Part shown: one piece after another, positions 17,812 through 44,959 of the stretch
Layout of the letters: the number at the start of each line of letters is the position of its first letter
Position numbering within the stretch: position 1 is the first letter of the stretch
Source of the DNA: a virus
Taxonomy: Duplodnaviria; Caudoviricetes
Length of the DNA stretch: 60,818 bases
Virus record (IMG/VR): IMGVR_UViG_3300026382_000017
Location: 1 to 60,818 of that record
Direction: 5' to 3' (one strand)
Made by a program: the position numbers and the translations under genes
Notes under the pieces: model-generated
Databases searched by the model: none
Told to the model about the DNA's origin: nothing
What the model saw: only the letters and a program-made list of their open reading frames with translations

Positions 17812-19899
17812 CTAAAATTTAAAAGTATCAAATTTATTTAAATCATTCTTGAGTGTTCCTTTTTGATAATTTGTGTTATCGGCTTCTTGTAAAGCAACTT
17901 GTGTTTTATTTAAATTTCTATAATCATTAAACCAATCAATAATATCAGATTTTTCCTCGTTAAAAATTGGATTTAACCCTATAACTTTTAATCTAAAATC
18001 TGTCCAATATTTTATAAAATGTTCACCAATCAACTTAGTATAACCCGGAATATTACCATCTTTCAAAAGATATTCATTCCATTCAAACTCTAACTCCACT
18101 GTTTCTTTTGCCATTTTATAAAGCATATCAATTATTTTATCTCGTAAATGATAAAAACCTTGATTTTTATCTGATAATAAAATTTTAATTAAATTTTGCC
18201 CTGTTGTAGTATGTACTGTCATCTCATCCCAAGCAATCAATTTTAATGCTTGACTAAATCCTTGAATACAATTTCCACAAGCTTTGTTAATAGTCCAAGT
18301 AACAAAAAAACTAAATGGAAATTTCACACCCTCTAAAAAATAAGTACGTAACAACAATTCTATTAAAGCTAATTTAGCCTCGTCATCTTCTCTATTTTGT
18401 TTTATTACTAAATCTATAAATTTATTAGCTGTTTCAATTTCTTTTTCTGTTCTTCTTTGTAAAATTTTATCTTCATAAACATAATCAAGCATTTCTGCAA
18501 CTTTTTCACCAAATACCTGAAATAAACCATTTGAGTAACTTAAACTATTTCCTGTTATTGCTATATATTTACCACTAAACCTTACTACAATAAAAGTAGA
18601 AGGGACTTCAACACCAACAATATTACCATTATAATCAATTAATTCTTTTTTCATTTCTCTACCTGTTTTATGTGTTTTAGGGATTAAATACAAACAATAA
18701 GATTTAGATTTTATCTTAGTCTTGCCATTATAATGATTATTCTTAATAGCTCTTTCCAACCCTTTATCATCAACACCAACTTGATAACCACCGATAGCCG
18801 CTAATGCCATTACTTTATCAATAGCTTTTTTATTTGAATTTATATATCTTACTGCTTGTTTATTAGCACATCCAGCCCCATCCCAATATCTTAATTCTTC
18901 TATAAACTCTTTTACCCAACTATCAGTAACATTATCTAAATCAACCCAATCAAAATTTTTATCAAATAACATATCAATCCATACATAAAAATTAACATAT
19001 CCTCTTTTTCCTCTCTTAATTGTGTAATCACAACCAATATTATCTAATATCCATTTTAATCTTTCTATTTTTCTTTGTTTTTTAAACCCAAACCTATAAG
19101 CATAACCTCTGTATGTTTTATGTGCACCTTTATATTTCCAAGCATTCATATAGCTTCCGTCTGCTTGAAAAGCAATTGCAAGTCTTTCTTTAAAAGATAA
19201 TTTATCTTTTTTACCTGTTCTCTTATACGCACTTACAGGAATACTCCAATTATAGATACTACAATTTAATGCTTCCTCTACTTTCCATTTTACATCTCCT
19301 TTGTAATCATTAAACGCAACAACTCTGTGTTTTGGTGTTACAACATATTCCATATTACTCATAGACCATTTTACTAATTTTCCAGAATAATATTGTTTTT
19401 CTATGCTTATAGGATTTTCAAAAGTAATAGTTCCAACCCTATCTTTTTCATCCAACCACCAATTAGCTACTTTATCTTCTAATGTTAAATCTTTTAATTT
19501 TTTCCATCCATTACTTGTCAAAATTTCATCTTCTTCTTTTAAGCAATGTATTTGTTCCTCCGTACCAATTCTACTATAAAGATAACTTAACCAAGTATCT
19601 GTTGCTATTTCACTTAAAGCACCAAAAGTATTAGGAACTAAACTATCCATATTGTTTTGATACAATAAATTTAAATGGAACATTCTAAACATTTTACTAT
19701 CTAAATTACTAATACCTTTTTTATCTTTACTATAATCAATTTCATTCATAAACCAAGTATTACCTTCACTATTTTCAGCTAATGTTTTAAAAATAGGGTA
19801 GGAAACCTTATCAATTCTCTGAAAGTTTCCATAATCCCCAAAAAATAATTTACCATATTCTTTCGGTTTCTTATTTAAGCATAATGTATTACAAATCAT
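17812..19899 (-). CDS. nrdB: Class Ia ribonucleotide reductase beta subunit containing an intein
   Basis: EEQIH|..|SLSY (ExxH plus radical Tyr), LEGVKFPFSF, DEMTVH, QVALQE; 362 aa after splicing. Confidence 0.93.
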   Translation of the reverse strand: MICNTLCLNKKPKEYGKLFFGDYGNFQRIDKVSYPIFKTLAENSEGNTWFMNEIDYSKDKKGISNLDSKMFRMFHLNLLYQNNMDSLVPNTFGALSEIATDTWLSYLYSRIGTEEQIHCLKEEDEILTSNGWKKLKDLTLEDKVANWWLDEKDRVGTITFENPISIEKQYYSGKLVKWSMSNMEYVVTPKHRVVAFNDYKGDVKWKVEEALNCSIYNWSIPVSAYKRTGKKDKLSFKERLAIAFQADGSYMNAWKYKGAHKTYRGYAYRFGFKKQRKIERLKWILDNIGCDYTIKRGKRGYVNFYVWIDMLFDKNFDWVDLDNVTDSWVKEFIEELRYWDGAGCANKQAVRYINSNKKAIDKVMALAAIGGYQVGVDDKGLERAIKNNHYNGKTKIKSKSYCLYLIPKTHKTGREMKKELIDYNGNIVGVEVPSTFIVVRFSGKYIAITGNSLSYSNGLFQVFGEKVAEMLDYVYEDKILQRRTEKEIETANKFIDLVIKQNREDDEAKLALIELLLRTYFLEGVKFPFSFFVTWTINKACGNCIQGFSQALKLIAWDEMTVHTTTGQNLIKILLSDKNQGFYHLRDKIIDMLYKMAKETVELEFEWNEYLLKDGNIPGYTKLIGEHFIKYWTDFRLKVIGLNPIFNEEKSDIIDWFNDYRNLNKTQVALQEADNTNYQKGTLKNDLNKFDTFKF
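18547..19545 (-). mobile_element. Intein with LAGLIDADG-type homing endonuclease in nrdB (333 aa)
   Basis: CLKEEDEILTSNGWK start, VTPKHRV block B, FQADG and YWDG endonuclease motifs, ITGN|S end. Confidence 0.92.
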
Positions 19900-19920: not shown

Positions 19921-22900
19921 TTAAACTGCACAACCTTCACAAACTTCTTCTATATCACCCTTTTTTAAACTATTAAAATAGTATAAACTTTTTACACCTA
20001 ACTTTTCTGCATAAACAATATCATTAATTATATCAAACGCACTATCAGGATTAGTCTGATATAAATTCAAACTTTGACTTTGGTCTAAAAATTTTTGTCT
20101 TATAGCCGCCAATTCTAATATCTGTTTTGTTGGAATTTCCCAAGCTTTTTCATAATACATTCTATTTTTCTGTAAATTAGGCACAATAAATGGTAATGTG
20201 TAAGTACCCTCTTTTGTTATTTTCAATTCCCTAATAGGTTCTATTCCTTCTGTAAAATTTAATACTGCACTTGAAGTAGCACCGGGTGGAATACTCATAA
20301 GCAATTCAAATCTAACACCATATTTTACCATTTCTACTCGTAAACTATCCCAATTATGTTTTAAAGGATAATTTAAAGTTACTCCTAATTCTTTTTCAAT
20401 TTCTTTAAAATATTCCTCATATAGCTCCCAACCAAATTTGCCTTTACTCCATAAGCTACCATCATAATAGTAATACTTACCTCTTTCTTTGGATAATTCA
20501 ATAGAATTTTTTACAAGGTAAAAATAAATATCCTCCATAACATAATGCGTAACTTCTTTAGCCTTTTCGTCACTAAATTTTATTTGTTGACTTGCTAACC
20601 AATTATGGTAATTTGTAATACCTATTCCTATAGCTCTGTGTAATTTATTAAACCTTTCACCTGCTTTTACAGGGTAATCGGCATATTCAATCGCATTATC
20701 CATACCAAGCAATAAAGAATAAATAAATTTGTCTTTTTCTTCCTCATTCATTTTATTCCAAGCCAACAGATTTATAGAAGTTAAATTACAAATACCAATT
20801 TCTCCATCATAAGACCTAACTTCTTTAATTACGCCTGTTTCTACATCCTTTATAAACTTAATTTTATTTAATTTTAAAGGTTTTGTAGGTAATAAAACTT
20901 CTGAACAACACAAATTACCCTGATTTATAAAATCTTTTGTAACTCTAAATTTATTAGCATTATCTACACTAAACCAATATAAATTACCTGTTTCACTTCT
21001 TATTTTAGCAACTAAATATGCTAATTCTCTTGCTTTAATTTTCTTTTTTCTTATGCCCTGTTTTTCTGAATAATATTTATACCATTTTTTAAACTCTTCT
21101 CCATAAGTATCGAGCAATTCTGGTGTATCTTTTGGGTCAAATAAATATACATAATCATCATTAATAATAGCATCTGTAAAAACAGAATTCCATTTTATTG
21201 CATATTTTAATTTTCTTGCCCTCTCATCATCATTTCCTCCTGCATCTTTTAATAATGTAATCCTTTCACTATCTAAATGCCAAAAAGGATAGTACACTGC
21301 CGCCGCTCCTACTCTTGCTGAATTACCACTAATTACAACCTTACCGTTTCTTCTCACTACGAGAATTGTTGAAGGAACACTAACACTGTATATTTTCCCT
21401 GTATATGTAATTTTTTCTTTTCTAATACCTCTGTTTGAGTTTTCCTTGTTGCTAATACTACAACTGCCTATTTTATTTGTCTTTACAAAACTAATTTTAT
21501 ATTGTTGTTTCCATACTTTATTTTCAGGTGTAATAACTGAGATACTTGTTCTATAGTTACCTAACACGGCTAATGCTTGAATTTTATCAACATTTTCTTT
21601 TTTTATTGTTAAATAGGAGTAGTCTCTATTTTTTGAACTCCCATCCCATTGAGTAAGCTCAAAAATAAACTCATCAATCTCCTGCTCCGAATACTTTGTT
21701 ATATCCACCCAATCAAAATCTTTAGGTAAAACCCCATAATCAACAGATACTTTTACATCAAAAATAGTTACAGGTTTATGTTCACCATTTTTGTTTATTC
21801 TTACTTTATAGTTAATATCAAATCCTTCCCTAATCAAAGTATCTAATAAATTTTGTAATCTTTTAATCTTTCTTTTTTTAGTAAATCTAAAATAGTAACT
21901 ATAATAACCAGAAAACTTACCAGTTATTCTTTTATTTCTACCTCCATCTGCTTGATAAGCAATTAAAAATTTATCCCAATTAGATAAATGTTTATTTTTA
22001 TTAATATTACCTCCGCTAACTATCATCCAATTATCAGAACCATATTCTATATCTTTAGCATATTCAATACTTAATTTATTAGATGGGGTTATCAATTTTA
22101 CCATTCTATGGTTTTGAGAAACCAATAAATCAATATATCTACCGCTATTCATATAAAAATGATACATTGGTTGCTCTTTTAAATCATACTCAAAAAAATC
22201 AACATAATTAACAAATTCAATATGCCCATTACCTTCTCCATCATAAACATATTGAGCTACTTTTTCATTCTCCAATTCACTAAATAATTTCCAACCATTT
22301 TCTGTTAAAATTTCAGTGTCTTCTGAGTAGCACTTTTGATTCCAGCTCGAAACAATACTTTCAAATACTTTTATAAATGGTATTACCCCAGAACTAACAC
22401 CATCTTTTCCTATACTACTACCTAATGCTCGTATTCTACTTATATCTACTCCTAATCCTGATGCATTCTTACTATAAATAGCCATACTTCTTGCTGTTTC
22501 CATAATACTTTCGCTGTCATCATCTGTCTGAATAAGAACACAACTTGTGGCATTAAATATATCACTTAAAGAATTTAACATTATAGGCGTAGCTGGTGCT
22601 ATTTTATGTAAACTTAACATATCATATTTTTCTTTAATCCTCTTTAACCTATCCTTATCTTTATAGTGTAATTGAATTGCTACCCTCATATAAGTATGTT
22701 GAGGTAATTCCAGCATTTTATTTTTTGTGTATCTTTTAGCATATTTACTCATAAATAATTCTAATCCCCCAAAAGTAAATAAAAAATCTCTTTTTGGGTT
22801 AATATAGCTACCTAATTCCTTTAACTCTTCCTCTGAAAAAGTTTCTATAATTTCTTTTTTATAAATATTATATTTTAAAGCTTTTTTTATTACTTCCAAA

Positions 22901-23226
22901 TAATCAGGGTATTCATCTCTTTTTATCCCCCAAACTTCTTTGTAATATTTTTGAATAAGTAAATTTTTAGCTACTTCATCCCATATTGGATATAATAAGG
23001 AAATCTTATTAGCAACTGTATTTATAACTTCATCAAATAATTTAGTTATATGAATTTTATCATAAATTTTTATTTGAACATCATTTAAAATTTCATCTAC
23101 CATCCACTCTCTATCGTTACAAGCCCATTTTAAAACTTTTCTCATTTTCTCTTCATCATACTCTTCAATTCTACCATCTCTTTTAACAACTAAATGTTTT
23201 TTATTTTTTACTAATTCTATTGCCAT
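19921..23226 (-). CDS. nrdA: Class Ia ribonucleotide reductase alpha subunit (ATP cone) containing an intein
   Basis: VVKRDG ATP cone, PATP, TSCVL, NLC..E, ICNL, PGATSS, KSLYY, C-terminal CEGC; 764 aa after splicing. Confidence 0.95.
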   Translation of the reverse strand: MAIELVKNKKHLVVKRDGRIEEYDEEKMRKVLKWACNDREWMVDEILNDVQIKIYDKIHITKLFDEVINTVANKISLLYPIWDEVAKNLLIQKYYKEVWGIKRDEYPDYLEVIKKALKYNIYKKEIIETFSEEELKELGSYINPKRDFLFTFGGLELFMSKYAKRYTKNKMLELPQHTYMRVAIQLHYKDKDRLKRIKEKYDMLSLHKIAPATPIMLNSLSDIFNATSCVLIQTDDDSESIMETARSMAIYSKNASGLGVDISRIRALGSSIGKDGVSSGVIPFIKVFESIVSSWNQKCYSEDTEILTENGWKLFSELENEKVAQYVYDGEGNGHIEFVNYVDFFEYDLKEQPMYHFYMNSGRYIDLLVSQNHRMVKLITPSNKLSIEYAKDIEYGSDNWMIVSGGNINKNKHLSNWDKFLIAYQADGGRNKRITGKFSGYYSYYFRFTKKRKIKRLQNLLDTLIREGFDINYKVRINKNGEHKPVTIFDVKVSVDYGVLPKDFDWVDITKYSEQEIDEFIFELTQWDGSSKNRDYSYLTIKKENVDKIQALAVLGNYRTSISVITPENKVWKQQYKISFVKTNKIGSCSISNKENSNRGIRKEKITYTGKIYSVSVPSTILVVRRNGKVVISGNSARVGAAAVYYPFWHLDSERITLLKDAGGNDDERARKLKYAIKWNSVFTDAIINDDYVYLFDPKDTPELLDTYGEEFKKWYKYYSEKQGIRKKKIKARELAYLVAKIRSETGNLYWFSVDNANKFRVTKDFINQGNLCCSEVLLPTKPLKLNKIKFIKDVETGVIKEVRSYDGEIGICNLTSINLLAWNKMNEEEKDKFIYSLLLGMDNAIEYADYPVKAGERFNKLHRAIGIGITNYHNWLASQQIKFSDEKAKEVTHYVMEDIYFYLVKNSIELSKERGKYYYYDGSLWSKGKFGWELYEEYFKEIEKELGVTLNYPLKHNWDSLRVEMVKYGVRFELLMSIPPGATSSAVLNFTEGIEPIRELKITKEGTYTLPFIVPNLQKNRMYYEKAWEIPTKQILELAAIRQKFLDQSQSLNLYQTNPDSAFDIINDIVYAEKLGVKSLYYFNSLKKGDIEEVCEGCAV
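21322..22332 (-). mobile_element. Intein with LAGLIDADG-type homing endonuclease in nrdA (337 aa)
   Basis: CYSEDTEILTENGWK start, VSQNHRM block B, YQADG and QWDG, VISGN|S end; sits in the WNQK|SARVGA loop. Confidence 0.93.
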
Positions 23227-23971: not shown

Positions 23972-24185
23972 AATATTTTTTTGGTTTAATTATAAAAATA
24001 GGTAATTTTTCCTTTACTTCTTTGTTTTTTATACCATACATCTTTTTTATTAAATGTATAGTACGCCTATCTCTATCTAAAATTCTTCCAATATCAGCAT
24101 TAGAAAAATAAGGGGAAAGAACTTTTACTAACTCTAACAATTCTGGCGTACTTTTCCATCTTAATTTCTTTTTTCTTTTACTCAT
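23949..24185 (-). CDS. Small HTH DNA-binding protein
   Basis: SNADIGRILDRDRRTI. Confidence 0.7.
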   Translation of the reverse strand: MSKRKKKLRWKSTPELLELVKVLSPYFSNADIGRILDRDRRTIHLIKKMYGIKNKEVKEKLPIFIIKPKKYYEEEKNG

Positions 24186-24193
24186 TTTTACTC

Positions 24194-25549
24194 CTATATT
24201 ACAACAAATTCACCAACACCTTCTTGTTTATAATAAGAATACACTGCATAACGCAATGCCGCAATATAATCAAAATGATGCCCCTTTACTCTTTTAAAAG
24301 GGTCAGGACTTTTAACATTCGTATCTTTCCATTCAAGCACTTGAATTTGTTGTATTAACTCTTTCATATCTTTATTAATATATAGTTTTTCCTGCTCAAA
24401 TAATTGGTTTAACAAACCAACACTTTCTTTTATAGCATTCATTGCTGGATAAAAAATCAAATTATGGTCATTTGCCAACCCTATTCTTGTTAATTTAGCA
24501 GAAGGGTCAATAAAACGTAATGTCGGCTCAACACCCCATTTTTCTTCTATATTTTTTATCATTTCCGCTAACTTAGCTTCTGATACGTTATTAATTTCAA
24601 AACCATCAAGCACATAATATTTACCCCTTTCCACATAAACCAAAACATAACTTGAATTATCACTTGCACCAACATCTAAACCTGTCACAATAATATTATT
24701 TTTATCAATTAAAGATTTAAATATACTAACATCAGTAGTATTTTTATTATAATCAAAAGAATAGAACACTCCACTTTCTTGAAATAAAACAGGTTCATTC
24801 AAATATTGCATTCTAAATTCTTTTTCACCTATTCTTTCTCTTTCTTGTTGTAACATTTCAGGTGTGAATAAAGGATTCTCTGTTGCTTTATAATTAATAC
24901 TAATATAACCTTTCTCTTTTCTTTCGCCTCTTAGATAATATTCGTAAGCCACTTTGTTTTTCCTCAACGAGCCAAGCATTATTGTTTTTGCAAGACGCAT
25001 TCCGTTTGGGTGTGTTCCATATGTCAGCATTGCTGGGCTTAAAGAAGATAAAATTCTATCAATATCATTTATTAAAAATACTTCATCTATTATTAATAAA
25101 CTTAAAGATAAGCCCTCTAATTGTTCAACTGTTTTTTCTGAAACACCATAAAATGCTGACCCGTTTTCTAACTTAAAAGTCTTCTGTTGTGAATTTATTG
25201 AAATAGGTTTTATACCCATTTTTCTTAAAATTTTCAAGACTTCATTAAAAATAACATCCAACTGTTTATTAGTAGGACAAACTAAACCAACATTTGCTTG
25301 AGGAGTTAACAAATCTAACACTGCAATATGTGCTGTTGTTATTGATTTGCTTGATCTTCTTGATGCAAGAAGAAACAAAGTATGAAACTCCTCGTATTGT
25401 TTGTCAATAACATTTATAACTTTTTCCTGAAAAGGCAGAGGTTTCAATTCTGTAAGTTTAAACAAATTCTTTAGTTTAGGTCTTTGTTTTCCAAGTTTCA
25501 CTTTTCTATAAAAAGCAACATCTTTACTTACAACCTCACTCATCATCAT
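24194..25549 (-). CDS. terL: Terminase large subunit (T5-like)
   Basis: PFQ Q-motif, ASRRSSKS Walker A-like, LLIIDE Walker B, ENP..F.MQY, GLDVG RNase H nuclease, IDPSA, D..AALRYAVYS. Confidence 0.9.
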   Translation of the reverse strand: MMMSEVVSKDVAFYRKVKLGKQRPKLKNLFKLTELKPLPFQEKVINVIDKQYEEFHTLFLLASRRSSKSITTAHIAVLDLLTPQANVGLVCPTNKQLDVIFNEVLKILRKMGIKPISINSQQKTFKLENGSAFYGVSEKTVEQLEGLSLSLLIIDEVFLINDIDRILSSLSPAMLTYGTHPNGMRLAKTIMLGSLRKNKVAYEYYLRGERKEKGYISINYKATENPLFTPEMLQQERERIGEKEFRMQYLNEPVLFQESGVFYSFDYNKNTTDVSIFKSLIDKNNIIVTGLDVGASDNSSYVLVYVERGKYYVLDGFEINNVSEAKLAEMIKNIEEKWGVEPTLRFIDPSAKLTRIGLANDHNLIFYPAMNAIKESVGLLNQLFEQEKLYINKDMKELIQQIQVLEWKDTNVKSPDPFKRVKGHHFDYIAALRYAVYSYYKQEGVGEFVVI

Positions 25550-25949
25550 CTCTTGTTAATTGCTGTAAAATATTGACAAAAACATTTTGGTCAGATGTTC
25601 CAAGCCTTTTCTTTTCCTGTTCTTTATTTATTTTATCAGCTAATGCTATAACATCCAAAATATCTCTACCTTTCCCTATTAATTTTGTGACATCGCCGTC
25701 TGCTTTTTTAATCATTTCATCAGTCAATTCATCTAAAATTTTTGTATGTTTTTCTCTCAACAACAATTCTCTTGTTTCAACAATTTCCTCAATCTTTTTT
25801 TTAACATCAGGTTTTGAAAATACTCTATTAACAACTTTAATAGGAATATCAAGCTTGTGAGCAATTGCTTCTCTATCATATCCCTCTGTATATAAAGTAA
25901 GTATTTCTTCTTCAATTATATTATACTTTACAATATCACCCATAATCAC
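25536..25949 (-). CDS. terS: Terminase small subunit (putative)
   Basis: N-terminal HTH plus helical region, directly upstream of terL. Confidence 0.7.
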   Translation of the reverse strand: MIMGDIVKYNIIEEEILTLYTEGYDREAIAHKLDIPIKVVNRVFSKPDVKKKIEEIVETRELLLREKHTKILDELTDEMIKKADGDVTKLIGKGRDILDVIALADKINKEQEKKRLGTSDQNVFVNILQQLTRDDDE

Positions 25950-26149
25950 TCCTCACATAAATTATACAAAATTTTATTAAATTCATTTTCTATCGCTTTT
26001 TTATATTCTAAATTTTTTTCTAATTCTTTATTTTTTTCTCTACATTTTTTACATCTTAAAAACTCATCAAATTTTTCACTATAAAAAACTTCGCCACAAC
26101 TACATTTTATTTTTACTACATTATCTTCGTCAAATCTTCCAATTAACAT
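25946..26149 (-). CDS. Small Zn-ribbon protein
   Basis: CSCG...CKKC. Confidence 0.65.
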   Translation of the reverse strand: MLIGRFDEDNVVKIKCSCGEVFYSEKFDEFLRCKKCREKNKELEKNLEYKKAIENEFNKILYNLCEE

Positions 26150-27261
26150 CGTAATACTCCTACTTCTTTTACTTTCTCAATATCAACTAATTCCACTTGT
26201 AACAACGCTATTTCCTCTTTTATAATCTGTTCAATTTGTTCAAAAGAAATTTTCTTATTATGTATAAGAGCAATCAAATCTTTTTTTATTTTTTGTAAAT
26301 ATTTTTTAATAGTTTTATCACTTATTTTAGCTATTTTTGCTAACTTTCTAAAACTAACAAGTCCCCAGATTATTTTAAAAAAGGCAATCTTTCCTTCTTT
26401 TAAAGAGGCAACAATATTTTTAAATCCTTTTATATAAGTTTTTTTCGCTTTATACTTTGCAAGTAATCTATTATATTGAGCCTGATATTTATTTTTCTTA
26501 TAATTTTCATTATAATTTCTTTGTGCAAAACTATAAGCACTTGCTGTTGTTGCTTTTACTTCACTAAAATTTAATGGCTCAATCATCAAATCATTAACTC
26601 TAACCGCTTCTTTTAAAACCTGTTCAAAAGATAAATGAATATTTCTAAAAGTAAAAGTTCTTATATACTGAAACAATGTATTGTTTCTTTCTCCTACTTT
26701 AACTGCTGTAAAGTCAATAAATTTTTCTGTTTTTTTAATTGATTTTCTTTTCTTTGCAATTGTTTTCTTCATACTTTCCAAAGAAACAATATGTTCAAAA
26801 TCATTTAATGTATAATGTACATCCATAAAAACATAATCGTGAAATAACGGATTTCTAAAAATATAGCCTGCTGAATGTTTATCTCCCCCAAAATATTCAT
26901 TCAGTTTTCTAATTAATTTTTTTCTGTAACTTAGCAATAAACGATTATTTTTCCAAATAGGTGTATCTAAATACCAATGTAAATGCCAACCTTTACTTGT
27001 TTTAACAATTATTGTAGGAACAGGAATAACATTTTTATCACAGAAAGAATAAAAATGTTCAAATTCCTGAAATCTACTTCTATCATCAATGTCAATTGAC
27101 AACCATTGATATTTTTGTGGATGAGCAAATTGAATAAACTTAAATTTAGTTACACCTATTACTTTAGGTATATTTAAACGATACGCACCTTGTTTTTCAT
27201 TTGAGCATTGAATTTTAGAAGGCAATCCTGACAATAATAATTTAACTACTTCCTCATTCAC
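26143..27261 (-). CDS. rep: ColE2-type plasmid replicase (AEP primase + PriCT-1 + C-terminal HTH)
   Basis: FIQF..P...WLSIDID, PTIIV..SKGWHLHWYLDTPI, GGD..SAGYIFRNPL, GERNNTLFQYIR, EPLNFSEVKATTAS, SFRKLAKIAKISDKTI. Confidence 0.85.
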   Translation of the reverse strand: MNEEVVKLLLSGLPSKIQCSNEKQGAYRLNIPKVIGVTKFKFIQFAHPQKYQWLSIDIDDRSRFQEFEHFYSFCDKNVIPVPTIIVKTSKGWHLHWYLDTPIWKNNRLLLSYRKKLIRKLNEYFGGDKHSAGYIFRNPLFHDYVFMDVHYTLNDFEHIVSLESMKKTIAKKRKSIKKTEKFIDFTAVKVGERNNTLFQYIRTFTFRNIHLSFEQVLKEAVRVNDLMIEPLNFSEVKATTASAYSFAQRNYNENYKKNKYQAQYNRLLAKYKAKKTYIKGFKNIVASLKEGKIAFFKIIWGLVSFRKLAKIAKISDKTIKKYLQKIKKDLIALIHNKKISFEQIEQIIKEEIALLQVELVDIEKVKEVGVLRC

Positions 27262-27290
27262 ATATCTCTCCTTTTACAAAATCACAATAT

Positions 27291-27362
27291 ATTATACTAA
27301 AAAATAAAATAAATGTCAAGTCTTTTTATAGGAATTATATCAAATATTTATATAAATGTCAA
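27291..27362 (-). promoter_or_regulatory. Two tandem consensus promoters for the rep-terS-terL operon (27291-27319, 27334-27362)
   Basis: Both TTGACA-17-TATAAT. Confidence 0.8.
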
Positions 27363-27400
27363 AAGTATTAAAATATTATATAAGAATATTAAAATAATCT

Positions 27401-27509
27401 TAGCTAACTAACTATATGATATGGTTTTCCGCACTTTTTTGAAGGCTAAATTTTACTATTTTTCAACTCAAAAAAGTGCGGAAAACCATATCATATAGTT
27501 AGTTAGCTA
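27401..27509. repeat. Perfect 42-bp inverted repeat (25-nt spacer) built from the family A core; candidate replication origin
   Basis: 27401-27442 is the exact reverse complement of 27468-27509; next to rep, at a strand switch. Confidence 0.9.
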
Positions 27510-27782
27510 TATTTGCTAACATAAATTATAATAGATACATTTATTTTATATCTATTATGTTATAAAATATTATTTATAAAACTATTAGGAGTATCAATAT
27601 AGCACATGTCTAAAACCTCGAATTGATGGTATTTTCAAAAATGATACTATGTCATAATCACTATATAGCATAATAAATATTGTCTTTCAAAACCCCCGAT
27701 ATATCGAGGTTTTAGAACACTTAAAAAGTTACTTTTAAAAAAAAGCAATTTATATATAGAAGGGCAATAAAAGGAGTTACTA

Positions 27783-29132
27783 TTGTTTAATGTAACACAA
27801 TTATTTTCAAAGCGTTCGCCTAAAACTAATTCTCCCCCAGATGAAAGTTATAATAGGCAACCTATTGAAACAAAAGCAACAAAAGCAAACAAATTATTTA
27901 TGGAAAATGCTGAAATAACAACATCAACACAAGGATTTATAAATGCTTATAGCAATGCCGACCTGATATATTCCTGTGTTAGTTATGCGTCTGATATTAT
28001 TTCACAAATAAAAATAAATGCTTTTAAACAAGATAAACAAGGTGAATTAACTGAATACGGCAATGAGAAATTATTGAATTGGTTACGCCAACCTAATCCA
28101 TTTCAAAGTATGCCTGATATTCTTTATTTATACGCACAAAGTTATTTTTTAGCTGGTAATGCGTATTTAACCTTTGAAAAAGTCGGAAGTAATTATGAAG
28201 GGTGGATTTTAAACCCTGTTAAAACAAAAGTTGTTCCTGATACAAGACAATTTATAAAAGGCTATATTTATGATGATAAAGTAGCTTACAAATTAAATGA
28301 AATGATACCTTTTAAAAATAGTTTTTTAGGTAATGAATTTTATGGGCAAAGTTACTTAACAGCATTGGTTGACCCTTTATCAATTGAAGGTTTTGCTGTT
28401 GATGATTTGAAGTCGTTTTTTGCCAATTCCTTAGTTGCACAAGGGATTTTTACAAGTGAATTTCCTTTAACAAAAGCACAAATAGAGGCGTTGAGAGAGC
28501 AATTTAGAACGCTTTATGGTAGAGGAGGCGAAGAAAGATATGGTCATATTATTGCCCCTAATAGTTTAAAATATCAACCATTGAAATTAACACCAAAAGA
28601 CGGAATGCTTTTAGAAGCTCTTGGGGTTACAGAAGAAAGAATATATAAAGTATTTAGATTAAATCCTATATTATTAGGTATTGGTGTTAAAAATACGAGC
28701 AATTCAGGAACAAGTTTAAAAGAGCAAAAGAAAATTTATATAAATAATTTTATTCGACCAATAATAAATAGAATGCTAAAACAATGGGAAACAGCATTTA
28801 GAAGAATATTTAAAGACCCTGATTTAGTATTAATGCCTGATTACAGTGCTATACCAGAAGTCAATACAGCTCTTGAAGAAAAGATAGATAGTGTTAAAAC
28901 TGCTGTTAGTTTAGGTTTATTGAGTCAAAATGAGGGTAGAGCTGTATTAGGATATAGAAAACTTGAAGGTCAATTAATGGATAGTCATTTAGCACCAAGT
29001 TATTTGTATGGTACTGAACCTTTAGATTTAATGACAGGAGAGGTAGTTAATTTAGCACCTACTAATCAACAACCAAGTCCTAATGGTAGTACAAATTCAG
29101 AAGGAGGCAAACAAGATGGTGTTAGCCGGTAA
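27783..29132 (+). CDS. Portal protein (HK97 family)
   Basis: IYSCV..ISQI, PNPFQS, GNAY, GQSYL..L, FFAN, IYKVFRLNP.LLG, LSQNEGR..LG. Confidence 0.92.
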   Translation: MFNVTQLFSKRSPKTNSPPDESYNRQPIETKATKANKLFMENAEITTSTQGFINAYSNADLIYSCVSYASDIISQIKINAFKQDKQGELTEYGNEKLLNWLRQPNPFQSMPDILYLYAQSYFLAGNAYLTFEKVGSNYEGWILNPVKTKVVPDTRQFIKGYIYDDKVAYKLNEMIPFKNSFLGNEFYGQSYLTALVDPLSIEGFAVDDLKSFFANSLVAQGIFTSEFPLTKAQIEALREQFRTLYGRGGEERYGHIIAPNSLKYQPLKLTPKDGMLLEALGVTEERIYKVFRLNPILLGIGVKNTSNSGTSLKEQKKIYINNFIRPIINRMLKQWETAFRRIFKDPDLVLMPDYSAIPEVNTALEEKIDSVKTAVSLGLLSQNEGRAVLGYRKLEGQLMDSHLAPSYLYGTEPLDLMTGEVVNLAPTNQQPSPNGSTNSEGGKQDGVSR

Positions 29133-29153
29133 ATATATGTTTAAGGGGTAAAA

Positions 29154-30800
29154 ATGGAATTGAAAGAAAAAGTGAAAGGGTTTTTAGGTTGTGAAACAAA
29201 AACTCTTTCAGCAAATGATGAATACGTAGAAATAGAGGGTTATGCTAATTACCTATCAAAAGATAGAGATGGAGATATTGTAATACCGTCAGGAATTGAT
29301 TTGTCACATTATGAAAAAAATCCTATTGTTTTATATCAACATAATCAAAAAGAGCCTTGTGGTAAAGTTGTGAACATTGAATTGCGCCCTGATGGTCTTT
29401 ACGTTAAAGCAAGAATATATAAAGCCTTACATGAAAAAGCTTATAATGCTGTTAAATTAGGTGTTTTAAAAACTTTTTCTATTGGTTTTATGGGGCTTGA
29501 CGGTGAATATGATGATGAAACTGATACATTCTTTTTCAAGAAGACTGAATTATTTGAGATAAGTGTTGTTTCAGTTCCAAGCAACAGAGAAAGTGTATTT
29601 GAAGTTTTACAGTCTCCTTGTGGTGATGGTTTTTGTTTAGCTCAAAGGAATTTTTCAAAAACTTTAAAAAGTCAAGAAAAAATAAAAATTGACAATTCAA
29701 AAATTTCTGATAGAAAATGGTCTGATGTTGATAAAACAGCAATGGCACAAAAACTTGAAGAGGTTGGGAGTAAGAGAGCTATAAAAGAAGCTTATTTATA
29801 TATTGAAGATTATGATAAAAGAAGTACTTGGTGTTGTCCTCATCACGAATTAGAAGGTAATACTTTGGTTTTAAATAAAAATGGTGTTATTGCAGCATAT
29901 CAAGCTTTAGAGGGAGCACACGGTACTAAACCTAATATTCCTACTGAAGATTTAGATGAAGTTTATAAACATATTGCAAAACATTATAAACAATTATTTG
30001 AAGCTGGTTTAATAAATGATATACCAGAAAAATTAAAGGAACTGTTAGGTATGAAAAAAGAAGTAAAAGAACAGGGTACTGAATTAACAGTTGATAATAT
30101 TGTTAATGAAATATCAAAACAGTCAGGTGTTCCAGAAGAAGAAGTTATCAAAATGTTATTGTTTATGAATTTTTCAATCTTCAAAAAAGACGGAACGCTT
30201 ACAAAATTCGCTGAAAAATATAAGATTAGAAAAAATACTTGGTATGAGGATTTATATTCTGTTTTAAAACAAATGAAAGAAGAATATAAAGGTGATAGAG
30301 AAAGAAATGCTTTTACTGAAATAATGAAAAGTTTGGCATTATCAAGTATTTCAAGAGCGAGTGCTTGGATTTATGATACTTATGTTAAAACGGAAGAAGG
30401 AAATCAAGCTGAACAATTATTAACATCAAGAACTTTCGCAGAAGCTTGGTTTTTTAATACGATGGGTATAACGCTTGATAATTTACTAAAATTCAAGAGC
30501 GTTGTAAAACTAATGGATAAGTATTTTGATGTAGTTTCTTCTTTTGTGAATAGTAGGAAATACACAGAAGGAAAGGAATCAAAGAATATGAATGATAAGA
30601 AAATAAAAGAGCTTGAAGCAAGAATTGCTGAATTAGAAGCTCAATTGGAAAAACAAAAAACTTTATCGCTTGATGAAGTTAAAGAGTTTCTTTTAAAAGA
30701 AATTGAAAGTGGTGATGTTGGTGGTTTACTTACGTTTTATGATGAAGTTGGAAAACAACTAAACAATAAATTAACAAAAATCTTAGAAGGAGATGAATAA
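29154..30800 (+). CDS. Prohead maturation protease (HK97-type) with long C-terminal extension
   Basis: IEGYA, DRDGDIV, LYQHN, FSIGF, LFEISVVSVPSN. Confidence 0.9.
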   Translation: MELKEKVKGFLGCETKTLSANDEYVEIEGYANYLSKDRDGDIVIPSGIDLSHYEKNPIVLYQHNQKEPCGKVVNIELRPDGLYVKARIYKALHEKAYNAVKLGVLKTFSIGFMGLDGEYDDETDTFFFKKTELFEISVVSVPSNRESVFEVLQSPCGDGFCLAQRNFSKTLKSQEKIKIDNSKISDRKWSDVDKTAMAQKLEEVGSKRAIKEAYLYIEDYDKRSTWCCPHHELEGNTLVLNKNGVIAAYQALEGAHGTKPNIPTEDLDEVYKHIAKHYKQLFEAGLINDIPEKLKELLGMKKEVKEQGTELTVDNIVNEISKQSGVPEEEVIKMLLFMNFSIFKKDGTLTKFAEKYKIRKNTWYEDLYSVLKQMKEEYKGDRERNAFTEIMKSLALSSISRASAWIYDTYVKTEEGNQAEQLLTSRTFAEAWFFNTMGITLDNLLKFKSVVKLMDKYFDVVSSFVNSRKYTEGKESKNMNDKKIKELEARIAELEAQLEKQKTLSLDEVKEFLLKEIESGDVGGLLTFYDEVGKQLNNKLTKILEGDE

Positions 30801-32017
30801 TGAGTATTGAAGTTATTAAAAATATGAAAGCAGAAATTGAGGCATTAAAAAAAGACCTCGATAGTGCTAAATCTACAAGTGAAGCTATTAAAGCTATTGA
30901 GGCAAGAATTGATGAAATAGAGGCTCAAAGAAAGAAAACATTTGATGTTACAAGTGCGGATGAAGCTACTGTAAAAAAAGTTGCAAAAAAAGCGGCGGAT
31001 CTTGCATTGAAAGCTAAATTACTTGGTAGAGATTACAAATCGTTTGCTGAATTCAAAGAGGTTGCTCCTGTAATTGAAAAAGCAATTACACCAAGCTCAA
31101 TTGAAAATTGGATTGATGAACAATTTAGTAAACAAATTATAGACCTTATGGAATATGATTTGAAAATTGAGAAACTGTTTGGTAGTGTTGTTGTTCCTGA
31201 TGGTGTTGGTAGACTGTCATTCCCTCAAAAAACAGGTAGAAGTAAAGCGTATCTAATTCAACCAGCACAAGACGCAGTAGAAAGTGCTATTACAGGTGGC
31301 AAAGTAACATTTGACCCTGTTAAGCTTAAAACACTTGTTATTGTTTCCGAAGAAGCAAGAAACGAAGCTGTTGTTGGTGCATTGCTTGATGTTGTAAAAC
31401 AAGATATGGCATATTCTCTTGCAATGGGTATTGAAGATGCATTAATTAATGGTGATAAATCTGGTGATATAAATAATAACCCACCAGCTACTGATGTTAA
31501 AAATGCTTTTGACGCATTGAGAAAATATGGTCTTGCAAATACTGTTGATAATGGTGGTGGTTCAATTACTGTTGCTAATATTAGAAAAGCTGTTAAACAA
31601 ATGGGTGTTTATGGGGTGCAGCCAAGAGAATGCGTACTTATTGTAAATCCAAGAGTTTATGCACAAATTAAAGAAATTCCAGAGCTTCAAACAATTGACA
31701 AAATTGGTAATAGTGCTGTTTTAAGAACAGGTACTGTTGCAATGCTTGATGGTATGGAAATTATTGTTTCTGATTTTATTCCTAATAACTTAAATGCTGA
31801 AGGCAAAGTTGATGGTGAAGACACTTCAACAAAAACAGCAGCACTTGTTGTAAATACAAAAGCATTTAAAGTTGGTAAAAGAAATACTGTTGAGTTTGAA
31901 AGAGATAAAAGCATAATTAACGATACGCTAATCTTTACATCAAGAACATATAGAGACTTTAAGAAAATTGCTGTTGAGGATACTGCAATTGCTGAAATTG
32001 TAAATATTAGTGACTAA
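30800..32017 (+). CDS. Major capsid protein (HK97 fold, N-terminal coiled-coil delta domain)
   Basis: Position after the protease; coiled-coil N-terminus, IEDALINGD, LDGMEIIVSDFIP. Confidence 0.9.
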   Translation: MSIEVIKNMKAEIEALKKDLDSAKSTSEAIKAIEARIDEIEAQRKKTFDVTSADEATVKKVAKKAADLALKAKLLGRDYKSFAEFKEVAPVIEKAITPSSIENWIDEQFSKQIIDLMEYDLKIEKLFGSVVVPDGVGRLSFPQKTGRSKAYLIQPAQDAVESAITGGKVTFDPVKLKTLVIVSEEARNEAVVGALLDVVKQDMAYSLAMGIEDALINGDKSGDINNNPPATDVKNAFDALRKYGLANTVDNGGGSITVANIRKAVKQMGVYGVQPRECVLIVNPRVYAQIKEIPELQTIDKIGNSAVLRTGTVAMLDGMEIIVSDFIPNNLNAEGKVDGEDTSTKTAALVVNTKAFKVGKRNTVEFERDKSIINDTLIFTSRTYRDFKKIAVEDTAIAEIVNISD

Positions 32018-32021
32018 AATT

Positions 32022-32051
32022 AGTCAATAGGGCTTTGCCCTTGACTTTTTT
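32022..32051 (+). terminator. Intrinsic terminator after the capsid gene
   Basis: AGTCAATAGGGC-TTT-GCCCTTGACT followed by a T run. Confidence 0.7.
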
Positions 32052-32064
32052 AAATTTACTTTAG

Positions 32065-32140
32065 TGGGTAGTAGTTTAGTCGGTAGAACGAATGGCTGTT
32101 AACCATTAGGTCGTAGGTTCGAGTCCTACCTACCCAGCCA
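32065..32140 (+). tRNA. tRNA-Asn(GTT)
   Basis: Acceptor TGGGTAG/CTACCCA, anticodon arm AATGG-CTGTTAA-CCATT, GGTTCGAGTCC T-arm, encoded CCA. Confidence 0.95.
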
Positions 32141-32197
32141 AAATATTTTATTGTAAAAAATTAAAATTGTTACAATAAAATATTTTGAGGAGGTATT

Positions 32198-32434
32198 ATG
32201 TTTTATGTCATAAAAAAGACAAAAGGTCAGATGGAATCAAAAGGTAAAGTTTTTGTGTTTAAACAAAAAGTAAAAGTTTCAAAAGAGATGTATAAATATT
32301 TGAAAACTAATTTTAGTAATATGTTTGAATTTGAAGAAGAAAAAACTAAACCAACTACTTTGAAGAACGAAAAAGTTGTAGTAACAAAAGCGCCTACTAA
32401 AAGGACGAGAGGTAAAGCAGTAAAGGATAAATAA
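32198..32434 (+). CDS. Small basic virion-module protein
   Basis: 78-aa ORF, GAGGAGG RBS, typical post-capsid position. Confidence 0.7.
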   Translation: MFYVIKKTKGQMESKGKVFVFKQKVKVSKEMYKYLKTNFSNMFEFEEEKTKPTTLKNEKVVVTKAPTKRTRGKAVKDK

Positions 32435-32967
32435 TGAGCCATTATTTATTGGATGAATTTAAGATTTATAAAGATATAAATTTAGATGATACAGATAAAG
32501 ATGATAAAATATCATTGTTTTTGTCAGCAGTTGAAAAGTTTTTAAATAAAACTTATGGTATTTACTTAAAAAAAACTGATGAAATAACGGAAAAATTTTC
32601 AGTGTTAGGAAATACGATATTATTACCAAGTAACAATGTAGAAGTTACAAAAGTTGTTATAAATGATAAAGAGTGGGATTTAGACGATTTATATTTAAAA
32701 GGTAATGTGTTAAAAGCTATAAATAATCCTTTTCCTAATGGTGTTAAAAATGCGGAAGTAACATATAAATTAGGTTTTGATGAAATACCTTATGATTTAA
32801 AAATAGCAGTTTTTATTTTAACGTCGAGGTTACTTTCTTCTGCTGAAAATTCAGGAGAAGAAATGGAATATTTAGCAGACCCTGTTGGAGGTAAAATGAG
32901 GATGGTTAAAAACATACCTTCTGATTTTTTCCTCTTGATTGCTCCTTATAGAACAATGTTTGTGTGA
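32434..32967 (+). CDS. Head-tail connector/adaptor (gp6-like)
   Basis: LDEFKIY..D.DDKI, VTYKLGFDEIPYDLKIAV, LIAPYR. Confidence 0.8.
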   Translation: MSHYLLDEFKIYKDINLDDTDKDDKISLFLSAVEKFLNKTYGIYLKKTDEITEKFSVLGNTILLPSNNVEVTKVVINDKEWDLDDLYLKGNVLKAINNPFPNGVKNAEVTYKLGFDEIPYDLKIAVFILTSRLLSSAENSGEEMEYLADPVGGKMRMVKNIPSDFFLLIAPYRTMFV

Positions 32968-33493
32968 GGGAAAAATGTCTAAAAAAGTATATGTAGATTT
33001 TGTTCATAGTAGTGTTTTAGAAACAAAAAACACTATTGTTACAACAATAGAAGGAGCATTTTCTGAACGCTTTAAAAATATCATTGTTGCTTCTTTAAAA
33101 GAAGCATTGTTACAAGAACAAAAAGAATGGGCTGAAAAGGTTAAAGAGCGATTAAATGATGTTATTCCAAAACATATGTTACATAAAAAAAGGTATCCAC
33201 GAAATAGAGAATTTCCTTACTTAAATTCAGGAGAGTTACGAGATTCAACTTTTACTTTTTTACATCAGCAACTTGGTGATAAGAGTGTAACATTTAATTT
33301 ATGGTATAAATTTTTATCTAAACACGCTTTTTTTACAACAAATGCTATAAGAAGTGATGATACCCCCGGTTGGAAAGGATGGACTGATAGGGTTTTTGAA
33401 AAAGGAGGAAGCAATTTTGTTTCAGCTAAACAAATGGTTCGACGTTTGTTTGAAAAAGACAAATTGCAATTATTAATAAGGAAAAGTTTATGA
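32939..33493 (+). CDS. Neck/tail completion protein (putative; true start probably the ATG at 32975)
   Basis: Synteny; P..SGELRDS motif. Confidence 0.65.
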   Translation: MLLIEQCLCEGKMSKKVYVDFVHSSVLETKNTIVTTIEGAFSERFKNIIVASLKEALLQEQKEWAEKVKERLNDVIPKHMLHKKRYPRNREFPYLNSGELRDSTFTFLHQQLGDKSVTFNLWYKFLSKHAFFTTNAIRSDDTPGWKGWTDRVFEKGGSNFVSAKQMVRRLFEKDKLQLLIRKSL

Positions 33494-33897
33494 GAGAACA
33501 AATATTTGAAGCACTTGTGAAGGCAATAAAAAATAGTAATAAATTTAAGAAAGTTTATAGTGGTGTGTTACCTCCTATACCAAATGTTAAGTCTTTTCCT
33601 TCCGTTGCAATTGTTATTGATACAGAAAAAAGAGAGCGTGTCAACATAACAAGTTGTAATTTTCAAAGTATGTTACAAATAACAATTATGTTATATGGCA
33701 AAGCAAAGACAAATGCTTATACTGATGTTTTAAGCGAAAAAATAAAAGATTTAGAAGAAATTATACAAAAAGACGAAACTTTAAATGATTTAGTTTTAGA
33801 TGTATTTGTAAAAAGCATTCAGCAAGATGGTGGTATTTTATATCCCTACCAACTTGCTGAAATGACGATAGTTGCTTATTTTAGACAAAATATATAA
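33490..33897 (+). CDS. Tail terminator protein (putative)
   Basis: MREQI..AL, FPSVAI; directly before the tail tube gene. Confidence 0.7.
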   Translation: MREQIFEALVKAIKNSNKFKKVYSGVLPPIPNVKSFPSVAIVIDTEKRERVNITSCNFQSMLQITIMLYGKAKTNAYTDVLSEKIKDLEEIIQKDETLNDLVLDVFVKSIQQDGGILYPYQLAEMTIVAYFRQNI

Positions 33898-33906
33898 GGA
33901 GAATAA

Positions 33907-34932
33907 ATGGCAAGAAAAACAAGAGGAATTGTAACTCTAATAAAAGAAGAAGCTACTTACAATGTTGCACCTGCTTTTTCAGATAGTGATGTAGTATTGA
34001 CAGCAAAAGCAGATGTTGCGCCTAAAGTAGATACAGTTGAAAGAAAAGCTTTATCGTGTTCACTGATTACAGAAGCTGGTATTCCTGTTAGGTTTACAGC
34101 AAGTGGTTCAATCGATGTTGAAATGATGGCAGATACTGATGCTGATGGACATCCACAAATGTATGCAGATGTTTTATATGTTGCGGCTATGGGTGAAAAA
34201 AATGTTGCAACAGGTGCAAATGGGACAGGCGGATTTATAGGAAAAACTTCTGATGGGTCAACAGATGTAAATGAAATAAATGAAGCAGATGCCGACCACG
34301 CAGGAGACGCTACAATTTATAAAGTTAAAGATGGTGATAAAACTTCTATTGCTATCAAAAAATTTTATGATAGTGGTGACGCTGTGCTTGTGGCAACAGG
34401 TTTAGTTGTTAGCAAAATGGATTTGAATTTTACACAAGCAGATATTCTTTTAGCGTCTTTCTCACTTGAAGGTGCTGGGTATGAAACAGAAACAGGACAA
34501 ACTAAACCTGCGTGTGTTATTCCAAGTGGAACACCTTTTGTGGGGAAAAATGCTAAATTTACATATAAAAACAATACTGTAAATGCTCAAAATATAACTA
34601 TTAGTGTTGAAAATAAAGTTACTTCTGTTGAAAGTATTACTGCTGAGGGTTATATTGATAAAGTATTTATAGAAAAATCTATTACGGGACAATTTACAGT
34701 ATTATTTGAGGATTTTAGTTATCTCGAGGATTTAACAAACCAAACTATTGGTGAATTATTTCTTGATATACCAAAAGGAAGTCAACATATTGGTGCATAT
34801 TGTCCAAGAATTAAAGTAACAGATACACAAATTAATGATAATTCAAATGGTTTAATTGAAGTTACTGTTTCTTTCAAAGCAGAGAAAGACAGTAATAGAA
34901 ATGAAGTTCTTTATCTTGGAGTTAAAGCATAA
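33907..34932 (+). CDS. Major tail tube protein
   Basis: EATY...P N-terminus, beta-rich, ITGQFTV.FED; synteny. Confidence 0.8.
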   Translation: MARKTRGIVTLIKEEATYNVAPAFSDSDVVLTAKADVAPKVDTVERKALSCSLITEAGIPVRFTASGSIDVEMMADTDADGHPQMYADVLYVAAMGEKNVATGANGTGGFIGKTSDGSTDVNEINEADADHAGDATIYKVKDGDKTSIAIKKFYDSGDAVLVATGLVVSKMDLNFTQADILLASFSLEGAGYETETGQTKPACVIPSGTPFVGKNAKFTYKNNTVNAQNITISVENKVTSVESITAEGYIDKVFIEKSITGQFTVLFEDFSYLEDLTNQTIGELFLDIPKGSQHIGAYCPRIKVTDTQINDNSNGLIEVTVSFKAEKDSNRNEVLYLGVKA

Positions 34933-35015
34933 GTTTACCTCCAAGCCCTTTATGGGCTACAATAGATAATTATCGTTATTTATTGTAGCCTATAAATTTA
35001 AAAAAGGAGAGATAG

Positions 35016-35429: not shown

Positions 35430-35432
35430 TAG

Positions 35433-44957: not shown

Positions 44958-44959
44958 AT

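Follow-up and report, generated by a model that had tools for sequence, protein, structure and literature searches.

A viral contig of 60,818 bases (IMG/VR record IMGVR_UViG_3300026382_000017, Caudoviricetes; its full length is called the window here) encodes a protein, Rep, that on the evidence of its sequence and predicted fold is a ColE2-class initiator-primase. Upstream of its gene lies a perfect inverted repeat (inverted pair 1), each arm of which carries the same 29-nucleotide (nt) core. We found that this core belongs to a dispersed family with further copies in the window and in related phages, and that its single copies keep one orientation relative to the genes around them. The reading that we favour, tentatively and at slightly less than an even chance, is that the core is the duplex recognition and priming site of Rep and gives the phage several initiation sites.

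Rep and its operon

The features around rep, including the two halves of inverted pair 1, are as follows.

24194 to 25549, minus strand: terL, large terminase subunit; among named phages the T5-like ones are closest (24-26% identity)
25536 to 25949, minus strand: terS, small terminase subunit (phrog_3802, E 1.7e-6)
25946 to 26149, minus strand: open reading frame (ORF) of 67 amino acids, overlapping rep by 7 nt; no family match
26143 to 27261, minus strand: rep, with an archaeo-eukaryotic primase (AEP) region and probable PriCT-1 and C-terminal helix-turn-helix (HTH) regions, ColE2 Rep class; 372 amino acids, GTG start
27291 to 27362, minus strand: two tandem perfect sigma-70-type promoters toward rep, 12/12 matches each
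27401 to 27442, minus strand (the core reads on minus): left arm of inverted pair 1, 42 nt, 100% complementary to the right arm
27443 to 27467, no strand: A+T-rich spacer of inverted pair 1, 25 nt
27468 to 27509, plus strand (the core reads on plus): right arm of inverted pair 1, 42 nt
27783 to 29132, plus strand: portal protein, which opens the structural operon on the right side of inverted pair 1

The assignment of Rep to the ColE2 class follows from the agreement of Pfam, profile, fold, plasmid tblastn and pColE2-P9 BLASTP matches, and it bears out an earlier note on this DNA, which had described the ORF as a ColE2-type Rep primase. Replicase (PF03090) matched Rep with 33.2 bits and an E value of 6.3e-8, above the Pfam cut-off of 26; PriCT_1 (PF08708) fell just short, scoring 20.6 bits, 0.5 below its cut-off of 21.1, and HTH_11 reached 17.3 bits (cut-off, 25). 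A BLASTP comparison with pColE2-P9 Rep gave 62 bits and an E value of 2e-15; the alignment spans 254 residues and brings the DxD, HxH and GxD..NP motifs of the two proteins into register. In tblastn searches of plasmids, 159 records matched, pColE2-P9 among them (E 5e-5), and nearly all of the 45 plasmid rows listed overlie annotated replication initiation protein genes.

All three AEP motifs, given in a passage of PMC5862659 as hhhDhD (I), sxH (II) and hD (III), are present in Rep as SIDIDD (D57, D59), GWHLHW (H93, H95) and GGD (D127); their aligned counterparts in ColE2-P9 Rep are FDVD, GHAH and GAD. Across seven Rep homologues, D57, D59, H93, H95, D127, R136, N137, P138 and H141 are invariant; across 60 Rep sequences the invariant residues are D57, D59, D127, R136 and R192. 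A profile built from the seven homologues retrieved 891 cluster representatives at E values of 0.001 or less (45 at 1e-30 or less). The same profile matched PDB entry 3vw4, the ColE2-P9 Rep DNA-binding domain on its origin, over residues 194-257 (E 0.0023), and the VraR DNA-binding domain over residues 278-331 (E 0.009-0.04). The AlphaFold2 model of Rep, with a predicted local distance difference test score of 89.7, has short helices at 294-334. Its top Foldseek match was RepB' of RSF1010, an AEP fold with a helical C-terminal domain (3h20, E 8e-4; 3h25_A, E 2e-3), the AEP domain of the S-2L PrimPol (6zp9) was also among the best, and the comparison with 3vw4 gave a probability of 1.00 and a root mean square deviation of 3.3 over 72 columns. 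Predicted viral structures similar to the model at an E value of 0.001 or less numbered 38, many of them named primase. Only 8 matches to Rep, the window's own included, were found in a set of 5.8 billion proteins, and there was none in 50,697 phage records.

The genes rep, the 67-amino-acid ORF, terS and terL overlap successively by 7, 4 and 14 nt and therefore form one operon; rep stands at its head, as the earlier note had stated, and the order is kept in this lineage. The note's description of a perfect 42-bp inverted repeat about 140 bp upstream of rep, with the 29-nt core as it was written there, also proved accurate, the left edge of inverted pair 1 lying 139 nt upstream of the rep start codon. 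Between the pair and rep, on the minus strand, are the two promoters (TTGACA-17-TATAAT, at 27362->27334 and 27319->27291). Logan contigs aligned to positions 25000-30000 are pieces of a few hundred bases that break inside the repeat, and none of those listed spans inverted pair 1. Their summed depth is raised over 27338-27504, which fits a multi-copy repeat and proves nothing beyond that; a joint at 27320/27400 bears the flank of the second inverted pair described below and represents cross-mapping between the two.

More distant Rep phages were sought by a locus search in viral contigs, in which a single Rep sequence found no loci, a 60-sequence alignment was too little conserved, and a 7-sequence alignment found three. 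The three contigs encode Rep relatives of 28-32% identity. In all three, rep faces a flap endonuclease gene across an intergenic region; RuvC follows rep in two of the three; and two of the three have an inverted repeat of 25-26 nt located 60-150 nt upstream of rep, which is otherwise absent from their 82-kb and 9.6-kb contigs, bar one match with 3 mismatches in the former. The window splits the same gene trio, with Rep at inverted pair 1 and RuvC plus flap endonuclease at the second pair. The flap-endonuclease/rep intergenic regions of the distant phages (L008 5700-5800, L009 2340-2400, L010 3990-4060) also contain a conserved G+C-rich block (GGTGTCC..CCTATTATTGTATT..CCC-like). The linkage of rep to terS and terL is absent from these phages, where rep is followed by RuvC or PhoH; for this reason the coupling of replication to packaging at which the earlier note had hinted finds no support beyond gene order.

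The core family and its surroundings

The other copies of the core in the window, together with the features that adjoin the inverted pairs, are listed here.

94 to 122, plus strand: single core, antisense to the minus-strand gene at 132 to 431; 18 nt after a hairpin at 63-78
921 to 949, plus strand: single core, antisense to the flanking minus-strand genes; after a hairpin at 890-905
2966 to 2993, plus strand: single core whose A run lacks one base; follows a hairpin at 2935-2950, with minus-strand ORFs there
48275 to 48766, minus strand: RuvC-like resolvase, left neighbour of inverted pair 2
48840 to 48884, minus strand: left arm of inverted pair 2, 45 nt, perfect repeat
48943 to 48987, plus strand: right arm of inverted pair 2, 45 nt, perfect repeat; 58-nt spacer
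49459 to 50358, plus strand: flap endonuclease (5'-3' exonuclease); on the right side of inverted pair 2, the second gene
49079 to 49178, no strand: least stable 100-bp duplex segment of the window; contains a sigma-70-type promoter
27288 to 27387, no strand: second least stable 100-bp segment; rep side of inverted pair 1
27488 to 27587, no strand: third least stable 100-bp segment; opposite side of inverted pair 1

The window contains six exact copies of the 29-nt core, compared with 0.00 expected from 100 dinucleotide-preserving shuffles: one in each arm of inverted pair 1, and the others at 94+, 921+, 48855- and 48944+. The copy with the one-base deletion (at about 2966+) is the seventh member of the family. 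Exact-pattern scans located the core in 2 further related viral contigs and 12 metagenome contig stretches, which brings the number of copies listed to 29, or 30 if one degenerate copy is counted. Two matches to shorter core patterns in viral contigs (L011, L012) lay inside unrelated genes and were dropped as chance. The consensus common to all copies is AAAGTGCGGAAAACCATATCATATA, an optional TA, then GTTA; the flanks differ. Approximately 25-29 bp are invariant in all 29 listed copies, and the coding DNA of the contigs that carry them is 67-93% identical to that of the window. The copies are not all independent, because several loci from separate samples are one and the same place.

A single arm folds no more readily than shuffled sequence (-0.2 and -0.7 kcal/mol, z of 0.8 and 0.2); the whole inverted pairs fold at -44.4 and -50.7 kcal/mol, with z about -16. 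This lack of single-strand structure in the single arm suggests that the core is read as a duplex, as is the ColE2 origin. Near-palindromic at its centre (ACCATAT-C-ATATAGT), the core agrees there with the centre of the ColE2-P9 origin region at 12/15 positions; we give this likeness little weight because 107 of 2,000 shuffles scored as well. Both inverted pairs are located at strand switches of coding and GC skew, and the three least stable segments of the window flank them, yet these segments also contain promoters.

Misassembly as the origin of the perfect palindromes was rejected, because L007 has pair 1 again and L032 has pair 2, both contigs being from other samples and with sequence differences of their own. 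The former, which is 90% identical to the window, has an inverted pair upstream of portal and a third, direct copy, and its arms differ outside the core; in the latter, the arms of pair 2 are identical to the contig limit, over more than 50 nt, and the outer arm sequence is unlike that of the window. The gene content of one relative's contig with cores, L024, includes a family A polymerase that bears a 3'-5' exonuclease domain, and such a contig also encodes a superfamily 2 (SF2) helicase.

The single cores have a distinctive setting. In tandem-gene contexts, 13 of 13 are antisense to the flanking genes, and these represent about 9-10 independent places. Wherever the contig includes the preceding gene, 8-47 nt separate its stop codon from the GTTA end of the core. 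Most single cores also have, at a distance of 18-20 nt, a short G+C hairpin that shows T runs on both strands, and a weak promoter and the next ribosome-binding site come after it. The distance from the core to the next promoter ranges from 20 to 81 nt.

Several other sequence features accompany the cores. On the GTTA side in three relatives (L030 7320-7440 and 7655-7745, L027 1-240, L033 1-150) there are about 120 nt of A+T-rich iteron-like repeats, and on the AAAG side of the same cores a strong Shine-Dalgarno sequence precedes an 8-codon mini-ORF, MLEVQKKK. In L025 (84-140, 1152-1200, 2057-2110), single cores are followed by a short inverted copy of the box centre (AAAACCATATC ... GATATGGTTTT, 13-15 nt apart), forming mini-palindromes. 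A repeated element of 141 nt is found at window positions 440-580, 1845-1985 and 3692-3832 and, beside cores, in relatives (L026 3990-4130, L030 7430-7575, L027 3125-3250); it consists of an invariant TCTATTGAA block and a stem whose sides covary between copies. The element has no Rfam match, and window positions 1-4500 gave no Rfam match at E values up to 1; it could be a small RNA or a leader. Finally, a 23.9-kb fragment, G001 (L021, L022; 23,886 bases, flagged as having direct terminal repeats), corresponds exactly to the module between the two inverted pairs, with the genes from portal to tail, the Mre11-like gene and RuvC, and is self-closed through the repeat sequence, where a single core marks the join. 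Excision as a circle and misassembly are both possible origins of this fragment.

Possible roles of the core

Under the reading that we tentatively favour, rep would be expressed early from its two consensus host-type promoters, and Rep would recognise the asymmetric duplex box AAAGTGCGGAAAACCATATCATATA(TA)GTTA, melt the DNA locally and lay a short primer there, in the manner of ColE2 Rep at its ~30-bp origin. Extension of this primer would fall to the phage family A DNA polymerase, aided by the separate flap endonuclease; these two would amount to a split form of DNA polymerase I (Pol I), the enzyme that ColE2 takes from its host. Instead of one origin, the phage would have several Rep-dependent start sites: the two inverted pairs, at divergent gene junctions, would fire outward both ways, co-oriented with transcription, and the single cores, pointing against their flanking genes, would prime the opposite (lagging or displaced) strand. 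What the data show is the identity of Rep and the number, invariance, polarity and setting of the boxes; the binding of Rep to the box, priming there and the direction of synthesis are what we infer. Rep is the most economical candidate for the box-binding protein because it is the only sequence-specific DNA-binding replication protein in view, because its family acts at ~30-bp duplex sites adjoining rep, and because a repeat of their own persists at this position in its distant relatives. Elements of this reading have precedents: passages in PMC4538821 and PMC4980987 describe ColE2 Rep as an initiator and primase that needs Pol I, one in PMC5862659 states that it unwinds DNA via its PriCT-1 and HTH domains, and one in PMC3632103 reports multiple internal bidirectional origins in T5.

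Comparison with the ColE2-P9 system reveals both parallels and departures. The window Rep is homologous to the plasmid protein over the AEP region and the probable PriCT-1 region, and neither system has a helicase domain in Rep; the candidate phage site likewise measures about 30 bp as a duplex and cannot form a hairpin, its centre weakly resembles that of the plasmid site, and a family A polymerase is available for primer extension, on the phage side from a relative's contig. In contrast, the phage Rep is 75 residues longer at its C terminus, and its boxes occur in inverted pairs and as polar single copies in a genome estimated at about 190 kb with its own polymerase. RSF1010 offers a second comparison, since its RepB' is the best fold match to the phage Rep and both proteins combine an AEP region with PriCT-1, the latter probable in the phage Rep. 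The ssi sites of RSF1010 are recognised as folded single strands. A single phage core lacks such a hairpin fold, and RSF1010 also needs a separate RepC initiator and RepA helicase. According to a passage in PMC4538821, two sites recognised by the primase (ssiA and ssiB) let two primers be synthesised independently of each other in RSF1010; the principle of priming both strands from two opposed sites is therefore not new. The T5-like phages are nearest by terL, and the lineage shares with them a family A polymerase, SF2 helicases, flap endonuclease, ligase and ribonucleotide reductase, although the terL identity is only 24-26%; the initiation protein proposed for T5 in a section of PMC3632103 is the D2 helicase, not an AEP Rep.

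A number of observations weigh against Rep as the protein that uses the core. Instead of the single cognate origin of about 30 bp beside rep that characterises the ColE2 Rep class, we found seven copies at five places, none specific to rep and those nearest to it upstream; the ColE2-P9 origin is single, lies directly downstream of rep and supports unidirectional replication. Inverted pair 2 is located between RuvC and the flap-endonuclease operon, 21.5 kb from rep. Seven cores in 60.8 kb, three of them within 3 kb, are too frequent for classical origins; with none in 3.0-27.4, 27.5-48.8 or 49.0-60.8 kb, they are too rare and too clustered to serve general priming of the lagging strand. In L033 (85% identical DNA) and L028 (76%), a single core is visible at the rep junction, its AAAG side toward rep, and no partner core was present in the 89-150 nt by which the contigs extend beyond it; at the RuvC/flap-endonuclease junction of L030, two cores stand in direct, not inverted, order. 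G001 (CheckV, 27% complete) carries the core and lacks rep. Within each phage variant, all core copies share one 2-nt insertion and flank, which points to homogenisation by recombination, not to independent selection. The polarity of the single cores relative to genes is equally expected of a transcription element, their stop codon-hairpin-promoter setting is typical of transcription signals, and another gene block of the window has a separate intergenic palindrome, as class-specific regulation predicts.

The earlier note had proposed that two cores in inverted orientation turn the plasmid system into a bidirectional origin beside rep. The repeat that two of the three distant phages keep upstream of their own rep genes, the unstable flanks of the inverted pair and the size of the core, which is that of a ColE2 origin, speak for this proposal, and the role of the inverted repeat as a replication origin is plausible; the dispersed core family, the second pair 21.5 kb away, the polar single copies and the single or directly repeated cores of L028, L033 and L030 do not fit it.

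Priming at the cores might be extended to the whole genome, an elaboration that we regard as unlikely. Rep would act only at polar boxes, a T5-like strand-displacing family A polymerase would extend the primers, the antisense boxes would prime the displaced strand, and the inverted pairs would serve as snap-back origins: a displaced, single-stranded pair would refold into a hairpin of 42-45 bp, rebuild the duplex box and allow Rep to prime the complementary strand. This version would account for perfect complementarity of the pairs beyond the core when the outer arms vary by locus and phage (window, L032), and for the mini inverted repeat of the box centre at some L025 single cores.

The strongest alternative, a serious rival though in our judgement the less probable, is that the box is a polar transcription-control element unrelated to Rep. 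In one form, host RNA polymerase, redirected by a phage factor, would use it as a promoter that fires outward from the pairs to the portal, rep-terminase, RuvC and nucleotide-metabolism operons and antisense over the small early genes; in the other, it would be a stoperator-like roadblock at which a phage DNA-binding protein helps to end transcription at gene boundaries. Either form would explain the strict orientation of the 13 of 13 single copies and their position between stop codon and T-run hairpin, upstream of the next promoter; the cores of both inverted pairs point outward at operons, and the near-palindromic box centre is of the sort bound by dimeric regulators. Some copies include TTGAAA or TTCAAA, 16-17 nt and TATCAT (e.g., 27443->27416), and the second gene block with its own intergenic palindrome fits such a scheme. 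However, the 25-29 invariant bases exceed what a sigma-type promoter needs, and the -35-like hexamer varies among copies in both sequence and spacing (14-17 nt). Read as promoters, the single copies would run antisense to all of their flanking genes; as roadblocks, the inverted pairs would have nothing to stop, because they lie in untranscribed divergent regions upstream of promoters. A separate T4-like late-promoter candidate is closer to the portal gene, and no cognate regulator was recognised among 14 small ORFs scanned, with about one third of the genome covered.

Mycobacteriophage stoperators are the precedent for the transcriptional role: a passage of PMC9283540 describes them as asymmetric, present in more than 20 copies per genome, situated in short intergenic gaps and locked in orientation to transcription. 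They differ from the phage box in that they are 13 bp, against 25-29 bp, and belong to temperate phages with an immunity repressor, whereas no lysogeny genes were seen among the ORFs scanned here and the inverted pairs lie outside transcribed DNA. Three specific transcription assignments for the core were rejected: the GG-N6-GC spacing is wrong for a sigma-54 promoter, the resemblance to the end of a T7-type promoter is superficial, and the spread of 20-81 nt between box and promoter excludes a fixed-distance site for a phased activator.

It is distinctly unlikely that the box, hairpin and promoter together form a recombination cassette that shuffles small genes and modules, with the inverted pairs as by-products and no dedicated binding protein. 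The model for such cassettes is the PeSL (early promoter and stem-loop), a small composite terminator/promoter motif that, in PMC4122927, is reported to mediate modular shuffling in T4-like phages; its conserved modules of hairpin and promoter lie on either side of small early ORFs, at places where relatives differ in gene content. In the window, cassettes similarly enclose one or two small ORFs over 1-3 kb, and there is a 136-nt duplication; contigs of relatives end at or near cores (L007, L023, L028, L032, L033); the portal side of L026 is joined to a left-hand gene set other than that of the window; G001 is the module between the two pairs, self-closed; and the same indel and flank occur in all copies of a variant. 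On the other hand, the conserved part of a PeSL is an early promoter and stem-loop, and here conservation is highest in an extra 29-nt box that is neither. Recombination alone leaves unexplained both the base-by-base invariance of 25-29 bp amid diverged flanks and the strict polarity, and contig breaks and odd joins at repeats are typical of assemblers, so the rearrangements may be artefacts; the Logan contigs are too fragmented to bear on them. The cassette explanation is also compatible with either of the other readings, in that the box may combine a function with a shuffling role.

Lastly, a pac- or cos-like packaging signal recognised by the small terminase is highly improbable as the function of the inverted pair beside rep-terS-terL: terS and terL are 1.5-3 kb downstream in the same operon and packaging sites are often near terS, but seven copies in 60.8 kb would mean many cut sites, a second perfect pair stands beside RuvC and flap endonuclease, far from the terminase genes, and the cores of relatives also adjoin helicase and polymerase genes.

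Genome context and significance

The window is a linear contig that CheckV rates as 32% complete, from which we estimate, given its 60.8 kb, a whole phage genome of about 190 kb; the earlier note's description of the phage as large is in keeping with this figure. Its G+C content is 24-31%, and the sequencing runs that contain the stretch are labelled as hydrothermal vent metagenomes, with no RNA dataset among those listed. There was no nucleotide match for positions 24001-32000 in the 50,697 phage records, and no integrase among 40 window ORFs scanned. No match to the T7-type RNA polymerase family was obtained in the window, a result that is uninformative because the same search was silent in all 14 control genomes.

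The genes are arranged in four blocks. A leftward block from 27,261 to 1 contains rep, the terminase genes, ribonucleotide reductase, ligase, endolysin and numerous small ORFs, and a rightward block (27,783-46,997) encodes portal, protease, capsid and tail proteins. A second leftward block (47,025-48,766) carries the Mre11-like exonuclease and RuvC, and the second rightward block, from 49,190, carries flap endonuclease, a protein like 3'-phosphoadenosine-5'-phosphosulfate (PAPS) reductase, deoxycytidine monophosphate (dCMP) deaminase and ThyX. Two tRNA genes are the only Rfam matches at gathering thresholds:

32065 to 32140: tRNA gene, Asn-GTT
56397 to 56487: tRNA gene, Ser-GCT

The ribonucleotide reductase large subunit (19921-23226, 1101 amino acids) and small subunit (17812-19899, 695 amino acids), dCMP deaminase (52229-52918) and ThyX (53350-54288) are oversized or have a family match split in two by foreign matches. 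All of them probably carry inteins or inserted domains. The SF2 helicase of one relative (L027 629-2977) contains LAGLIDADG homing-endonuclease domains.

Repeats other than the core were also noted. A second intergenic family, near 6860, 8230, 9528 and 10500, has the palindrome AAAAGTTACAAATTGTAACTTTT just upstream of the ribosome-binding sites of minus-strand genes, and is probably the operator or terminator of another gene class. There is a 101-nt tandem duplication of 87% identity at 10603-10804 and a 28-nt perfect palindrome with a 3-nt centre at 9644-9702. About 100 nt upstream of portal, a conserved box like ATAGCATAA / TATAAATA (window 27664-27680, L007 at about 450-470, L026 at about 4180-4215) is a candidate T4-style late promoter, distinct from the core.

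Phage AEP primases with PriCT-1 and HTH regions and no helicase are common, and how they find their start sites is largely unexplained; in PMC5862659 one passage poses the question for two related families, RepE/RepS and PrimHYQ, and another shows that phage AEPs with the Rep-type build are already known as a kind. Rep joins that kind. In keyword searches of the open-access literature we came upon no account of a large phage whose ColE2-class Rep is accompanied by candidate origin boxes in dispersed polar copies, and the multi-copy, polar, partly palindromic arrangement of the candidate site would be new.

In conclusion, Rep comes with an unusually clear candidate site, 25-29 bp in length, invariant across diverged relatives, polar and present in two perfect palindromic pairs. 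If Rep does bind this box, the phage would provide a tractable system in which to study how a unidirectional plasmid initiator was adapted to a large linear phage genome, how multi-origin replication operates in T5-like phages, and whether sequence can programme the priming of the lagging or displaced strand. If it does not, an uncultured vent phage would have supplied a clean example of a regulatory site with polarity.

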